Positions 1 through 4,116 of a stretch of DNA of 4,116 bases are shown here, piece by piece. The notes below the pieces were generated by a model, which worked only from the letters and a program-made list of their open reading frames with translations, did no database searches and was not told the DNA's origin. Made by a program: the position numbers and the translations under genes. Origin of the DNA: a virus (Duplodnaviria; Heunggongvirae; Uroviricota; Caudoviricetes); the IMG/VR virus record IMGVR_UViG_2534681992_000021, positions 1 through 4,116 of that record; one strand, written 5' to 3'. Numbering within the stretch: the first letter of the stretch is position 1; each line of letters begins with the position of its first letter.

Positions 1-1
1 C

Positions 2-298
2 GGAAAGGGGGAGGTTTCCACCGCCTGTACAGATTGTCGTGGGCGCGGTGTTGCCATTCATCGTGAAGAGTCGGAAAAACAGGGTGTGCCGGTTTTCAGA
101 AACTGCCAGCGTTGTGGTGGGCGTGGCTATGAAAGATTACCTTCAACGGAGGCATTTAATGCCATATGTAATGTAACCGATGCCATATCTCTTGATACAT
201 GGAAAAAAACAGTTAAACGTTTTTACGATACGCTGGTGGTGCAGTTTGATATTGAAGAAGCATGGGCAGAACAACAACTGAAAAAGGTGACCAGATAG
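2..298 (+). CDS. Q: Antitermination protein Q, lambda-type, C-terminal part (5'-truncated by window edge; stop TAG 296-298)
   Basis: Frame 2 is open from the window edge to TAG at 296-298; the ORF track's 86..298 is the M-initiated subset of this frame. The translation contains CTDC-(22 aa)-CQRC, the same CxxC-22-CxxC spacing I recall for the lambda Q zinc-binding cysteines, followed by 60 residues to the stop, consistent with a 207-aa lambda-like Q. A pR'/qut-like sequence follows immediately downstream. Not verified by alignment. Confidence 0.8.
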   Translation, partial: GKGEVSTACTDCRGRGVAIHREESEKQGVPVFRNCQRCGGRGYERLPSTEAFNAICNVTDAISLDTWKKTVKRFYDTLVVQFDIEEAWAEQQLKKVTR

Positions 299-303
299 CT
301 TTG

Positions 304-331
304 TTGATTTTTCCCGAATCTGTGGTAAATT
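304..331 (+). promoter_or_regulatory. pR'-like late promoter: -35 TTGATT (304-309), 16-bp spacer, extended -10 TGgTAAATT (323-331)
   Basis: Hexamers and spacing read directly. GTGGTAAATTTGCCCTAACGATGGG (322-346) closely resembles the lambda pR' -10/initial transcribed region as I recall it (GGTAAATTTGACTCAACGATGGG). Position directly downstream of Q matches lambdoid late-promoter architecture. Confidence 0.6.
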
Positions 332-352
332 TGCCCTAACGATGGGCGTTTT
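332..352 (+). promoter_or_regulatory. qut-like / sigma70-dependent promoter-proximal pause element (AACGAT -10-like repeat in the initial transcribed region)
   Basis: AACGATGGG at 338-346 just downstream of the -10 mirrors the pause-inducing -10-like element of lambda pR' where Q loads onto RNA polymerase. Established knowledge of lambda Q/qut plus sequence resemblance; exact start site and pause position not determinable here. Confidence 0.4.
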
Positions 353-401
353 ATGCCTGACGTTAGAAGATTTTTACACCCGTCGCCAGGCGGGTTTTTT
401 T
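338..401 (+). ncRNA. Candidate short constitutive pR' transcript ending at the tR'-like terminator (analogue of lambda 6S RNA / StxS-type sRNA)
   Basis: Predicted start a few nt after the -10 (about 338) and an intrinsic terminator ending at 401 would give a roughly 60-nt RNA in the absence of Q. Coordinates are inferred, not measured. Confidence 0.35.
378..401 (+). terminator. Rho-independent terminator (tR'-like): stem 378-384/389-395, GCCA loop, U-tract 396-401
   Basis: ACCCGTC gcca GGCGGGT forms a 7-bp stem (one G.U pair) followed by TTTTTT, about 80 nt after the Q stop and downstream of the pR'-like promoter. Confidence 0.7.
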
Positions 402-522
402 ATGACTGAAATCACGCCAGTACAGTAAACGCGCTGGTGGTTGTGAATACCGGTCTTTCAGCTTGCTGGCTTTTTTGACAAGAGTTATTGGTATGTCACG
501 TTAACCAAAAGGGAAAAAAGAC

Positions 523-720
523 ATGCTAAAACAGCAGGATATGACAGAAACCGCCAGAGTGGTGTTTAATGAATTAAGCGTTACCGACCCGGCGACAGTC
601 GGGGAGATTGCGCAGAATACTTACCTTTCACGCGAACGCTGCCAGTTAATACTGACCCAGCTTGTTATGGCGGGTCTGGCAGACTATCAGTTCGGTTGTT
701 ACAGACGCCTTCCGCAGTGA
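523..720 (+). CDS. Hypothetical small protein (65 aa), winged-helix/HTH-like; possible PapI/FaeA-like regulator
   Basis: ATG at 523 with a purine-rich AAAAGGGAAAAAAG stretch upstream; ORF ends TGA 718-720. The segment TVGEIAQNTYLSRERCQLILTQLVMAGLA has helix-turn-helix character and loosely resembles the PapI/FaeA DNA-binding core (TAEIAEAL...LLLLEKAGMV) from memory. Family assignment is tentative; could also be an uncharacterised phage protein. Confidence 0.5.
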   Translation: MLKQQDMTETARVVFNELSVTDPATVGEIAQNTYLSRERCQLILTQLVMAGLADYQFGCYRRLPQ

Positions 721-734
721 AGGCTTTTTTATTT
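707..734 (+). terminator. Rho-independent terminator overlapping the stop codon of the 523-720 ORF
   Basis: GCCTTC (707-712) / GAAGGC (719-724) perfect 6-bp stem with 6-nt loop, followed by TTTTTTATTT (725-734). The TGA stop at 718-720 lies in the loop/3' arm. Confidence 0.65.
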
Positions 735-870
735 GTGGTAAATGGGCGGCTGGTGGGTGTTAGGGGCACCTACCAGCCATCTGCTCATGCGTTGGGTTCA
801 CAAGCAAACCTCAGGCCCACTGCTTTGCGCAAAAGCAGAATGAGCCTATCAGAGACAGGCTTAATGATCC

Positions 871-1947
871 ATGCTTAATACTGTAAAAATATCCAGTTGT
901 GAGTTAATCAACGCTGATTGCCTGGAATTTATCCAGACCTTACCGGAAAACTCTGTCGATCTGATAGTCACAGACCCGCCATACTTTAAAGTGAAGCCCG
1001 AGGGCTGGGATAACCAGTGGAAGGGCGACGATGATTACCTGAAGTGGCTGGACCAGTGTCTGGCGCAGTTCTGGCGGGTGCTGAAACCTGCCGGAAGTCT
1101 TTACCTGTTCTGTGGCCATCGCCTGGCATCTGACATTGAAATCATGATGCGTGAACGCTTCAATGTGCTGAACCATATTATCTGGGCGAAGCCGTCCGGA
1201 CGCTGGAACGGGTGCAACAAGGAAAGCCTGCGGGCGTATTTTCCGGCCACAGAACGCATTCTGTTCGCGGAACATTATCAGGGGCCGTATCGTCCGAAAG
1301 ATGATGGCGATGAGGCGAAGGGCAGGGCACTGAAACAGCATGTGATGGCCCCGCTGATTTCTTACTTTCGTGATGCGCGTGCTGCTCTTGGGATAACGGC
1401 AAAACAGATTGCAGATGCCACAGGAAAGAAAAACATGGTGTCGCACTGGTTCAGTGCCAGTCAGTGGCAGCTACCGAACGAAAGCGATTATCTGAAATTA
1501 CAGTCGCTGTTTGCCCGGGTGGCAGAAGAGAAACATCAGCGGGGAGAACTGGAAAAGTCCCATTACCAACTGGTCAGCACATACAGTGAGCTGAACCGGC
1601 AGTACATGGAACTGCTGAGTGAATATAAAAATTTGCGGCGGTATTTCGGTGTGACGGTGCAGGTGCCGTACACCGATGTGTGGACGCATAAACCGGTGCA
1701 GTACTATCCAGGGAAACATCCGTGCGAAAAACCGGCAGAAATGCTGCGGCAGATAATCTGCGCGAGCAGTCGTCCGGGTGACCTGGTGGCGGATTTTTTC
1801 ATGGGTTCTGGCTCAACCATAAAAGCAGCTATGGCGCTCGGGCGTCGTGCAACTGGTGTTGAACTGGAGGCAGAACGTTTTGCGCAGACCGTTAAGGAGA
1901 TTAGTCACATCCTTACATGCTCAATTGATGACGGGAAGGATGGATAA
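871..1947 (+). CDS. DNA methyltransferase, N6-adenine/N4-cytosine amino-MTase, beta-class motif order (358 aa), apparently orphan
   Basis: Complete ORF ATG 871 to TAA 1945-1947. Catalytic motif IV DPPY (VDLIVTDPPYF) near the N-terminus and SAM-binding motif I FxGxG (DFFMGSGST) near the C-terminus, which is the beta-class arrangement (PF01555-like). No restriction endonuclease candidate nearby. Target specificity cannot be read from the sequence. Confidence 0.9.
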   Translation: MLNTVKISSCELINADCLEFIQTLPENSVDLIVTDPPYFKVKPEGWDNQWKGDDDYLKWLDQCLAQFWRVLKPAGSLYLFCGHRLASDIEIMMRERFNVLNHIIWAKPSGRWNGCNKESLRAYFPATERILFAEHYQGPYRPKDDGDEAKGRALKQHVMAPLISYFRDARAALGITAKQIADATGKKNMVSHWFSASQWQLPNESDYLKLQSLFARVAEEKHQRGELEKSHYQLVSTYSELNRQYMELLSEYKNLRRYFGVTVQVPYTDVWTHKPVQYYPGKHPCEKPAEMLRQIICASSRPGDLVADFFMGSGSTIKAAMALGRRATGVELEAERFAQTVKEISHILTCSIDDGKDG

Positions 1948-2058
1948 AGATATGGTCAGTTCAGGCTGTGAAGCAAGTAGACAGATAAGGCTGCAATAAA
2001 AACTGACAATAGTAAAATAGCTTTTTCTCAGGTAGTCATGAATACGATCTCTTAAAGC

Positions 2059-2078
2059 GCCCGCTGATACCAGCGGGC
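2059..2078. other. Stable hairpin (8-bp GC-rich stem GCCCGCTG/CAGCGGGC, 4-nt loop) about 110 bp after the methyltransferase stop, no U-tract
   Basis: Perfect inverted repeat read directly; neither strand has a following T-run, so it is not a canonical intrinsic terminator. Could be an RNA 3'-end/processing structure or protein site. Confidence 0.4.
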
Positions 2079-2193
2079 AATACATACTGGCATTAATGTT
2101 AAGTTCAGGGATAATTCATCGTATTTTGTGGTACGACGCTATCAATATTAATAAACAGTATTTTTCATGTAAAATTTCTGTTTTTTTGATCTG

Positions 2194-2388
2194 ATTCTCG
2201 TTTCCTGGGTTATGATGTTGTTGTGAACCATGCTGTTGAATGATAATGTTCGGATATAAAATTGTTGCTGATATGTAGCGCAGTGAGCAGGTGGTATTTC
2301 TGTTGCTGAGTGTACGGATACAGTGCTTCCCTCCCTCAGCGGGGGGGGGCAGGTGTGCTGTGGTTTTAGAGACGCCGGAAACGAGAAT
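2194..2388. repeat. 12-bp perfect inverted repeat pair (ATTCTCGTTTCC 2194-2205 / GGAAACGAGAAT 2377-2388) bracketing a 171-bp segment
   Basis: Read directly. The bracketed segment contains the G9 tract and a 9-bp direct repeat TGTTGCTGA (2263-2271, 2301-2309). Confidence 0.5.
2341..2349. repeat. Homopolymeric G9 tract (C9 on minus strand) in non-coding DNA
   Basis: Nine consecutive G read directly at 2341-2349. Confidence 0.9.
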
Positions 2389-2719
2389 GATGCGGGTTTG
2401 CTGGTGCCGGGATAGAGTCGCCGGAGGTCATGACATAGAGCAAAAAAGGAATGTGCATGCAAATACACACCTCTTCGGAGAGCTCTTCTTTATATGGATG
2501 AGCCTCAAGGTCAATAGTTTATCTGTTATGTATTCATATGTTGTTACTTATATAATCCATACGGGCATATCATCAGTACACACATACTATTATGGCATTT
2601 TATTTTTGTTTTAACTGAATTCCCGGGGCACTCTTTTTGATTTCTGATAAGGAACCAGAATTTTCTGTTAAATGGTGTCACGTTGTAAATGGTTAATGGA
2701 AGCAGCTTATTATCCATAA

Positions 2720-2743
2720 TCACACCTGAGTTAACAGGTGTGA
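2720..2743. repeat. Perfect 9-bp inverted repeat TCACACCTG-agttaa-CAGGTGTGA (operator-like palindrome or RNA hairpin)
   Basis: Arms 2720-2728 and 2735-2743 are exact reverse complements with a 6-nt spacer; no flanking U-tract. Confidence 0.5.
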
Positions 2744-3020
2744 GAATACTTCCGGGTGGCAGGAACACATCTGACTGATACCAGATTATCAACTTTATTT
2801 TACACCATACAGTTGAAAACGTTATTCCGCTTGATGGGCATATCACTGTGTCAATAACTATCCATTCCATCTTTTAACCTTCTCGGTACACATTGCTTTC
2901 GATTGTTTTGCTAAAAATCATAGTCAATAAATCAGTGTAACTCATTGAAAAAGATCGTCTTCTTTGTCTTCCTGGGGTTTTCTTTTCTAATTTTGTATCA
3001 CTTTGGTTCAAGTTGTTTCA

Positions 3021-3109
3021 TTTTTTTGTAATACAAATTAGCAGGATGAGCGGGAATATAAAAAAATCGGATGTTTTTGTAATGGATATTATTTTTTTGT
3101 AAAATAATG
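3021..3109 (+). repeat. Three direct copies of TTTTTGTAA (3023-3031, 3074-3082, 3094-3102) in an A/T-rich block upstream of the esterase gene
   Basis: Read directly; each copy contains a -35-like TTGTAA. Confidence 0.5.
3077..3105 (+). promoter_or_regulatory. Candidate sigma70 promoter for the esterase gene: -35 TTGTAA (3077-3082), 17-bp spacer, -10 TAAAAT (3100-3105)
   Basis: Hexamers and spacing read directly; sits about 65 bp upstream of the ATG at 3172 in A/T-rich DNA. Sequence prediction only. Confidence 0.35.
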
Positions 3110-3171
3110 TATTTTTATTTAAATCTCTATCAGAAAAGAATTTATTGTTCCTTTATATGGTGGAAAAGGTC

Positions 3172-4116
3172 ATGGTATTTAAACACTACGATGTGGTCAG
3201 GGCGGCGTCGCCGTCAGATCTTGCGGAAAAGCTGACACAAAAACTGAAGGAGGGGGGGCAGCCATTTGGCAGCCCGGTGGCCATCACGCCTTATACTCTG
3301 ATGCAGGCCATTGCGGCGGAAGGTGATGTCACCACACCTGTGTTGGTGAAGCCGTCGGATGGAGAAGGCACAGTAATCAGCGCCACCAGAGACCCGGAGT
3401 ATTACTTTGTTGTGGTTCTGGCGGGGCAGTCAAACAGCATGGCATATGGTGAAGGCCTTCCGCTGCCGGAGACATATGACCGTCCGGACCCGCGTATTAA
3501 GCAGCTGGCGCGCCGCAGTACGGTGACACCGGGCGGTGCAGCATGCAAATATAACGACATCATTCCGGCGGACCATTGTCTGCATGATGTGCAGGACATG
3601 AGCCGCCTTAACCATCCGAAAGCGGACCTGTCAAAGGGGCAGTACGGAACCGTGGGGCAGGGGCTGCATATCGCCAAAAAACTGCTGCCGTTTATACCGG
3701 CGAATGCGGGCATTCTGCTGGTTCCGTGCTGTCGTGGTGGTTCAGCGTTCACCACCGGAGCTGATGGCACATACAGTGACGCGAGTGGTGCCTCGGAGAA
3801 TTCAACCCGCTGGGGTGTGGACAAGCCGCTGTATAAGGACCTTATCGGTCGAACAAAAGCAGCACTGAAGAAGAATCCGAAAAATGTGCTGTTTGCCGTG
3901 GTGTGGATGCAGGGGGAATTTGATTTTGGCGGTACGCCGGCAAATCACGCAGCACAGTTTGGTGCGCTGGTTGATAAATTCCGTGCAGACCTGGCGGATA
4001 TGGCAGGTCAGTGCGTCGGTGGCTCTGCTGGCGGTGTTCCCTGGATATGCGGGGACACGACGTATTTCTGGAAGCAGAAGAACGAATCCACGTACCAGAC
4101 GGTGTATGGCAGCTAT
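3172..4116 (+). CDS. nanS: Prophage sialate O-acetylesterase, NanS-p/YjhS family (N-terminal 315 codons; 3'-truncated by window edge)
   Basis: Frame open from ATG 3172 through the window end with no stop, which is why it is missing from the ORF track. Translation MVFKHYDVV...VVVLAGQSNSMAYGEGLPLPETYDRPDPRIKQLARRSTVTPGG...WICGDTT... carries the GQSN(S/M) catalytic-serine motif of the SASA/DUF303 esterase family and closely resembles E. coli NanS/YjhS and the nanS-p genes that lie downstream of stx in Stx prophages. GGTGGA 8 nt upstream of the ATG is a plausible ribosome-binding site. Confidence 0.9.
   Translation, partial: MVFKHYDVVRAASPSDLAEKLTQKLKEGGQPFGSPVAITPYTLMQAIAAEGDVTTPVLVKPSDGEGTVISATRDPEYYFVVVLAGQSNSMAYGEGLPLPETYDRPDPRIKQLARRSTVTPGGAACKYNDIIPADHCLHDVQDMSRLNHPKADLSKGQYGTVGQGLHIAKKLLPFIPANAGILLVPCCRGGSAFTTGADGTYSDASGASENSTRWGVDKPLYKDLIGRTKAALKKNPKNVLFAVVWMQGEFDFGGTPANHAAQFGALVDKFRADLADMAGQCVGGSAGGVPWICGDTTYFWKQKNESTYQTVYGSY

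Follow-up and report, generated by a model that had tools for sequence, protein, structure and literature searches.

What is an adenine methyltransferase with no endonuclease partner doing in a phage late operon, and does the very small gene in front of it have any part in its work? The question is raised by positions 1 to 4,116 of the IMG/VR record IMGVR_UViG_2534681992_000021 (Caudoviricetes), a 4,116-nucleotide stretch that we refer to as the window, in which a 65-codon open reading frame (ORF) precedes a methyltransferase gene. A sequence-only reading of this DNA had taken the small product for a PapI/FaeA-like regulator and proposed that the two genes form an epigenetic or anti-restriction module rather than a bare orphan methyltransferase. 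Both ORFs were found as described, each opening with ATG on the plus strand (Table 1). The explanation that we favour, and hold to be probable though well short of settled, is a late-expressed anti-restriction cassette with an M.EcoGII-type payload, in which a structured RNA leader and a winged-helix protein would control a toxic enzyme.

An orphan methyltransferase behind the late terminators

The methyltransferase (WP_000935502.1) matched PF01555 (N6_N4_Mtase) at 5.6e-43 and 147.9 bits, against a cut-off of 26.7, and was assigned to phrog_67 and phrog_6025, both annotated as DNA methyltransferase. Its catalytic motif IV (DPPY) lies N-terminal to motif I (FxGxG), which binds S-adenosylmethionine (AdoMet); this order places the enzyme in the beta class, and its nearest relatives of solved structure in the Protein Data Bank (PDB) include the beta-class enzymes M.RsrI, CcrM and M1.MboII. 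A search 12 kb to either side (a 28-kb stretch of the source genome) showed no endonuclease gene next to it. The sole nuclease nearby is a terminase-associated HNH protein about 6 kb downstream; the gene is flanked by Q and the small ORF on one side and by iraM and a SASA esterase gene on the other. The Pfam match, the motif order and the lack of an adjoining endonuclease together uphold its description as an orphan of the beta class.

Within that class, the protein is identical to M.EcoGII at 321 of 350 positions (92%), with about four substitutions in the recognition domain (residues 160–237); the M.EcoGII reference was machine-read from Table S1 of PMC11551740, and a few of these differences may be reading errors. 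Close identity that includes the recognition domain marks the enzyme as a putative M.EcoGII-type methyltransferase. According to the available part of PMC5778455, M.EcoGII methylates adenine in any sequence context and the 95% identical M.EcoGI is likewise non-specific; both are unexpressed in the lysogen, expression of M.EcoGII is deleterious, and the two are proposed to shield phage DNA from restriction. The same part of that paper names phage 1720a-02 as the carrier of a very similar enzyme, and we found this phage to be about 94% identical to the window in nucleotide sequence. A homologue from ST131, 99% like M.EcoGI, was silent by reverse transcription PCR (RT-PCR; PMC4659465), and a review sets M.EcoGII beside Mom among modifiers that are late, toxic and silent in lysogens (PMC12707154). 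As for a target motif, the prediction from identity to M.EcoGII is that there would be none, any adenine serving as substrate. The family is common: of 5426 complete E. coli genomes, 2721 (about half) had blastn matches to it, which occupied 4043 places in all.

The 4116 bases of the window are identical to positions 5229976–5234090 of the E. coli 2013C-3264 chromosome (NZ_CP027544.1), where they lie in a lambdoid prophage. By the annotation of the source genome, Cro/CI-type regulators, RusA and Q occupy its 5′ side, and DUF1378, DUF826, holin, lysozyme, terminase, capsid and portal genes follow 3′ of the window. Within the window the order is Q, terminators, the small ORF, the methyltransferase gene, a cargo slot and a nanS-p-like esterase gene. 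The placement in the late operon that had been proposed from the sequence was borne out: Q is followed by terminator-like hairpins, the methyltransferase gene lies 3′ of both on the strand shared by the lysis and morphogenesis genes, and holin and lysozyme genes come further 3′, as in a lambdoid late operon. Phages N15 and phiKO2 have an annotated late promoter/terminator at the equivalent place.

A winged-helix protein and a covarying RNA leader

The small ORF encodes a stand-alone protein (WP_000917749.1) that matched phrog_331, annotated in PHROGs as 'unknown function', at 2.8e-37. Its frame is kept in homologues of 62–67 amino acids, down to 36–40% identity, across Enterobacterales (Klebsiella, Salmonella, Citrobacter, Buttiauxella, Erwinia, Rosenbergiella, Xenorhabdus, Photorhabdus, Proteus and Morganella), and the ratio of non-synonymous to synonymous substitution rates (dN/dS) had a median of 0.19 over 481 pairs, indicating purifying selection. 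The kept frame and length and the low dN/dS rule out a chance ORF. AlphaFold2, given a 26-sequence alignment, predicted helices H1–H2–H3 followed by a beta-hairpin wing, with a pLDDT (the predicted score in the local distance difference test) that averaged 91.8; a three-helix bundle with a C-terminal wing is the fold of a winged helix, and the model agrees with the sequence-only reading on this point. Conservation peaks at an N-terminal MLKxxDMT and in the predicted recognition helix, RCQL(I/L)LTQ(L/F)xxAGL, which reads RCQLILTQL in the window protein and is nearly invariant. Cys40 is the only (nearly) invariant cysteine of the family.

Database comparisons returned winged-helix families of several kinds. 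The window protein gave only sub-threshold Pfam matches (TrmB at 0.0044, DprA_WH and MarR_2), and among 26 members of its family the leading Pfam families were DprA_WH (22 of 26, best 1.6e-6) and TrmB (21 of 26). The name that NCBI attaches to relatives, 'TrmB family transcriptional regulator', says no more than what the fold is. The small protein has no NCBIfam model, and Foldseek against viral structure models yielded generic winged-helix matches only. A Z-alpha domain was considered and rejected: the structural similarity is real, but the defining residues of helix 3 and the wing are absent. The hallmarks of Z-alpha are a conserved Asn and Tyr in helix 3 and a Pro-Pro-x-Trp in the wing. The searched literature offered nothing specific on the protein accession or on a pairing of a winged-helix protein with M.EcoGII.

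Between the two genes lies a conserved leader of the methyltransferase messenger RNA (mRNA), with a mean column identity of 82% over 34 species-level loci. RNAalifold alone gave a partial structure; a model of four helices (P1–P4) was drawn manually and then tested with controls. On an ordinary MAFFT alignment, 93.4% of the model's positions were paired, compared with 28–46% when partners were slid, and 8 pairs had changed on both sides compared with 3.2 in shuffles (none of 500 shuffles reached 8). On a 45-sequence alignment, 20 of 25 pairs had changed on both sides (9.0 when shuffled) and 95% of cells could pair (27–46% when slid); this alignment was fitted to a covariance model, so its figures lean towards the structure. 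G–U pairs occur on the plus strand, in keeping with an RNA in the methyltransferase sense. The covariance model found the leader directly 5′ of methyltransferase homologues in Serratia, Yersinia, phiKO2, Klebsiella 48ST307, N15, PhiR46_1 and VHML, and in Vibrio ST2-1pr and Aeromonas PhAER-1 its match stops about 120–130 nt before the gene; scores were 32–68 bits, and some of those methyltransferases are only about 50% identical.

The leader starts right after a hairpin/terminator in nearly all layouts and ends at the methyltransferase ATG, with no obvious Shine–Dalgarno sequence; the minimum-free-energy fold of positions 700–900 pairs the start-codon region (z = −3.8). A hidden coding region was rejected, as 1-nt indels shift the frame among loci and no ORF is conserved, and ARAGORN and Rfam gave no tRNA, tmRNA or known RNA family. 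Even at a permissive E ≤ 1, the covariance models of Rfam 15 had no match in 725–873, the lone weak match in the window lying elsewhere (326–410, suhB/mmgR, E 0.21), and the searched literature contained no description of the leader. Its 5′ AAUGGG segment has alternative pairings with several downstream CCCAU-like segments. Xenorhabdus and Photorhabdus keep the winged-helix gene and have a leader of about 95 nt, about 100 nt 5′ of the methyltransferase gene, in which the AAUGG segment and P2 are kept and the 3′ strand of P1 is gone; the covariance model did not detect this shortened form. Tentatively, the leader could represent a new class of cis-regulatory RNA that gates translation of non-specific adenine methyltransferases, the signal being either a metabolite such as AdoMet or S-adenosylhomocysteine, or the phrog_331 protein as a Com-like, RNA-binding activator or repressor, and the whole forming a safety circuit that acts after transcription on the toxic enzyme; we regard this extended proposal as possible but doubtful.

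Two further non-coding elements accompany the small ORF. An element of the CTTGCTG-N13-CAGAGTTAYMTGTRTGTCA type lies 25–70 nt 5′ of it from Escherichia to Xenorhabdus and Proteus and could be an operator or an RNA element. The second is a terminator-like hairpin whose boundary between loop and 3′ arm coincides with the stop codon of the small ORF (718–720); a hairpin overlapping the stop is present in at least 36 of 56 loci, 15 of which have a U-rich tail, and translation of the small ORF could in principle melt the terminator. A sigma-70 promoter of the ORF's own was discounted after a scan of 400–522 yielded no consensus-like site.

Table 1. Coordinates of the features in the window, numbered from its first base
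Feature	Position	Strand	Basis or remark
Late antiterminator Q gene, 3′ end (cut by the left window edge)	1–298	+	PF03589 Antiterm, 5.3e-20; annotated 'antitermination protein', WP_044706643.1
Presumed pR′/tR′ region, two terminator-like hairpins (332–348; 378–395 then T7)	299–402	+	Terminator scan
Conserved non-coding element, CTTGCTG-N13-CAGAGTTAYMTGTRTGTCA type	455–500	+	Alignment of 130 nt 5′ of small ORFs
Small ORF, 65-aa stand-alone winged-helix protein, WP_000917749.1	523–720	+	phrog_331
Hairpin GCCTTC-CGCAGT-GAAGGC then T6, second terminator-like element before the methyltransferase gene	707–730	+	Terminator scan
Conserved structured 5′ leader of the methyltransferase mRNA (~145 nt; core 743–836)	725–873	+	Conservation, covariation
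Leader P1	743–747/815–819	+	Closes three-way junction
Leader P2 hairpin	748–758/768–778	+	
Leader P3 hairpin	780–785/803–808	+	
Leader P4, following hairpin	822–825/833–836	+	Conserved 3′ tail then runs to the ATG
Orphan beta-class N6-adenine DNA methyltransferase, M.EcoGII/M.EcoGI family, 358 aa, WP_000935502.1	871–1947	+	
Catalytic motif IV, D-P-P-Y, residues 35–38	973–984	+	Read from translation; same in M.EcoGII
AdoMet-binding motif I, F-M-G-S-G, residues 310–314	1798–1812	+	Read from translation; same in M.EcoGII
AT-rich cargo slot	1948–3171		tRNAs and stx occupy the same slot in Stx phages
iraM (anti-adaptor) homologue in the cargo slot	2544–2870	−	NCBIfam, 1.7e-41
DUF1737 and SASA esterase, nanS-p type	from 3172		Pfam

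Linkage of the two genes and its possible meaning

We sampled 80 methyltransferase loci (61–91% identity) from contigs of one genome per species, 76 of which had enough upstream sequence. A homologue of the small ORF lay 45–155 nt 5′ of the methyltransferase gene in 59 of the 76, from Escherichia to Proteus and Xenorhabdus, and in the others that position was taken by Q itself, unrelated ORFs or an insertion sequence (IS) element. Co-occurrence of the two genes, on which the idea of a module depends, is therefore strong but not obligate. IMG/VR loci selected by the small ORF had the methyltransferase next in 72 of 73 cases. In a phage collection, 57 records carried the small ORF and 96 the methyltransferase family, all cross-checkable small-ORF matches lying about 150–180 nt 5′ of the methyltransferase. 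Stx2a phages carry the same small ORF and methyltransferase gene between Q and a tRNA-tRNA-tRNA-stx2A-stx2B array; Stx2c phages match the window in nucleotide sequence only from 740 on, and the position of the small ORF is taken there by an allele with 50% identity to it. A more distant homologue is gp51 of N15 and phiKO2 (75 aa; phrog_331 at 5.7e-28, hhalign probability 76%, hmmsearch 1e-4).

A second prophage of the source genome (NZ_CP027544.1, 945144–952341, reverse strand; locus 3501–4827) carries an identical small ORF and has the methyltransferase gene replaced. There, the leader breaks off after ~95 nt and gives way to a 237-aa AraC-family gene (PF12833, phrog_1450), tRNA-Ile, tRNA-Arg and tRNA-Arg, and a gene for a CPBP/Rce1-like protease sits between Q and the small ORF. 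The idea that the 237-aa gene might be a truncated methyltransferase was discarded, its product being an AraC-family protein that bears no resemblance to the methyltransferase.

By analogy with the characterised family, the favoured cassette would work as follows. In the lysogen, transcription would halt at the terminators behind Q and the toxic enzyme would stay silent; upon induction, Q-modified RNA polymerase would read through the terminators, the enzyme would methylate adenines throughout the replicating phage DNA, and progeny would thereby escape many restriction systems of the next host. The leader would set, limit or time translation of the methyltransferase, and the winged-helix protein may modulate that translation by binding the leader or the enzyme, in the manner of Com. 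Such an arrangement would be a control layer on a toxic late enzyme and not a heritable epigenetic switch.

Several points weigh against this account. The non-specificity of WP_000935502.1 is projected from its identity to M.EcoGII, and binding of the winged-helix protein to leader or enzyme is conjecture by analogy; the small protein is, by residue count, slightly acidic, an uncommon trait among proteins that bind nucleic acids. The small ORF is also found without the methyltransferase: the source genome has four copies of the former and two of the latter, and in 6 of 78 IMG/VR loci the methyltransferase has been lost, the break falling after spacer position ~760 or ~794. Conversely, 17 of the 76 loci, as well as those Vibrio, Aeromonas and Serratia phages that were examined, have leader and methyltransferase but no small ORF, indicating that the winged-helix protein is dispensable for the leader's function. 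In Stx2c phages, divergence of the two genes is uncoupled (50% versus 86% identity), which disfavours a tight protein–protein interface. In N15 and phiKO2, gp51 lies 5′ of the annotated late promoter/terminator, unlike the window's small ORF, which lies between terminator and leader; the N15 homologue is therefore not co-expressed in the same way. Lastly, the host prophage, with its frameshifted genes and IS element, may be defective or not inducible as a viable phage.

In a rival account, which we think possible but rather less than likely, the winged-helix gene is an independent first late gene or moron-like unit with an unrelated target, its synteny with the methyltransferase reflecting a shared slot after tR′. 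In favour of such a unit, replacement of the methyltransferase has left the small ORF whole and its protein sequence unchanged, and many phages have methyltransferase and leader that manage without it. Mosaic breakpoints at ~374 and ~740 flank the small-ORF module, which has its own conserved upstream element and hairpin/terminator, and this allele of the small ORF occurs at 4059 places in complete E. coli genomes, with no one-to-one map to the methyltransferase places (these E. coli co-occurrence counts are lower bounds). However, the adjacency persists across very divergent alleles and genera and, despite another operon layout, in N15-type phages. The methyltransferase-less copies, moreover, retain the first 35–95 nt of the leader and so look like secondary deletions or replacements in the line of an ancestor that had the methyltransferase.

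It is improbable, though not negligibly so, that the winged-helix protein acts through protein contact or by reading N6-methyladenine (m6A) and not as a gene regulator, either as a partner that resembles the DprA winged helix and stimulates or restrains the methyltransferase or by binding hypermethylated DNA as a shield against m6A-dependent Type IV nucleases such as Mrr. DprA_WH is the best Pfam family across members, and the small protein is slightly acidic. In Helicobacter pylori, the winged-helix domain of DprA (DML1) associates with itself and shows no DNA binding, and methyltransferases are stimulated by DprA in its full length (PMC4489622). Winged-helix domains of DpnI and of Mrr-type enzymes sense m6A (PMC12707154 and the available part of PMC11037411), and a phage methylating all its adenines would presumably face m6A-dependent nucleases. 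Uncoupled divergence and frequent recombination between the two genes speak against such a partnership, and binding to m6A or to the enzyme is conjecture.

The regulator first suspected, a PapI/FaeA-type co-regulator acting with site-specific adenine methylation in a heritable, phase-variation-like switch, fared worst. PapI too is a small stand-alone winged-helix protein, and a GATC (Dam site) stands at 866–869, −5 to −2 of the methyltransferase ATG, where it is kept in 43 of ~76 loci. PF04703 (FaeA/PapI) was nonetheless absent from the Pfam matches of the window protein at E ≤ 10 and from the 25 Pfam families most matched by the 26 family members (E ≤ 1), and PapI chains were absent from the PDB sequences that the family profile matched at E ≤ 10. 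The window contains 6 GATC sites against 12 expected, none of them between 299 and 865, and the next, at 958 (+88 of the ATG), is kept in just 12 of ~76 loci. A Pap-type switch needs a GATC-specific methylase and paired GATC sites, and is unsupported here: no GATC pair is conserved, and the enzyme is 92% identical to a non-specific methylase and unrelated to Dam. Since the gene family is silent in lysogens (PMC4659465 and the available part of PMC5778455), a methylation pattern could not be maintained there, and we consider a PapI-type switch very improbable indeed.

What stands of the sequence-only reading is thus a winged helix, an orphan beta-class enzyme and an anti-restriction module, and what falls is PapI and the epigenetic switch, a tempting annotation that can be removed as wrong. 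The methyltransferase is indeed no bare orphan: the cassette is recurrent, and its enzyme family is regarded as anti-restriction (PMC12707154 and the available part of PMC5778455). The enzyme itself adds one more member to a family already known; the cassette of phrog_331 protein, leader and methyltransferase is not described in the searched literature. M.EcoGII is the prototype of non-specific adenine methyltransferases, and engineered versions are under development as nucleic-acid methylation tools (PMC11551740 and the available part of PMC5778455). In the searched literature, as far as its available text goes, the account of its natural control stops at 'silent in the lysogen'; the winged-helix protein and the leader are two candidates, both open to testing, for the means by which phages keep a toxic anti-restriction enzyme in check. 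In many Stx2 phages the methyltransferase gene lies directly 5′ of the tRNA-stx2 cargo, so that control of read-through here also matters for how the late transcript with the toxin genes begins.

The surrounding prophage and known systems

Nucleotide similarity between the window and Stx2a phages begins at 374–393, that is, at the terminator. The window has no tRNA (ARAGORN) and no stx toxin gene. A run of nine G residues at 2341–2349, in the non-coding part of the cargo region, might slip. Across the host prophage (NZ_CP027544.1, 5217976–5246090), the DUF968 and portal genes are frameshifted, and ISEc20 lies near the terminase genes.

Among characterised systems, M.EcoGII and M.EcoGI of the E. 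coli O104:H4 C227-11 prophages resemble the present enzyme in being orphan and prophage-borne, with a near-identical recognition domain; M.EcoGII differs in its length (349 aa, against 358 aa here) and its C-terminal tail, and the available part of PMC5778455 describes neither an upstream winged-helix gene nor a leader for it. The C-terminal winged-helix domain of DprA (PF17782) is, unlike the small protein, part of a larger recombination-mediator protein, and the window protein scores 15.1 bits against it, under the Pfam cut-off of 22.9. PapI and FaeA share with the small protein a single winged-helix domain and a position beside genes whose expression involves adenine methylation; beyond the missing family match and GATC pair, they differ in that the partner here is a non-specific beta-class enzyme and not Dam, and that expression belongs to the late lytic phase instead of heritable switching. 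Controller (C) proteins of restriction–modification systems offer another likeness, a small DNA-binding protein encoded just 5′ of a potentially lethal enzyme. C proteins, dimers of the Xre helix-turn-helix type, work through C-boxes 5′ of their own genes and in most cases hold back the endonuclease. Here, by contrast, a winged helix precedes an orphan methyltransferase, and no C-box-like operator was identified.

Phages N15 and phiKO2 resemble the window in a gp52 that is 57–62% identical to the methyltransferase, in the same leader motif before gp52 and in the holin and lysozyme genes that follow. At the N15 locus (AF064539.1), gp51 occupies 2006–2233 and the methyltransferase homology extends over 2501–3589, from an ATG at 2501 (MLKTTQ...) that lies 234 nt 5′ of the point where gp52 is annotated to start; some 78 N-terminal residues, among them the part aligned with DPPY, thus seem to be missing from the deposited gp52. 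Nothing specific on the regulation of gp51 and gp52 in N15 was present in the searched literature.

A last comparison is with com-mom of phage Mu, where Com, a small protein of about 60 residues encoded just 5′ of mom, opens a hairpin that hides the start codon in the mom leader. There is no homology between the systems: Com is a Cys4 zinc finger and the small protein a winged helix with one invariant Cys, and Mom is not an AdoMet methyltransferase. What they would share, given the parallel drawn between Mom and M.EcoGII (PMC12707154), is a toxic late DNA-modifying enzyme kept silent in lysogens, and the likeness, taken as an analogy, is one of architecture and not of membership.

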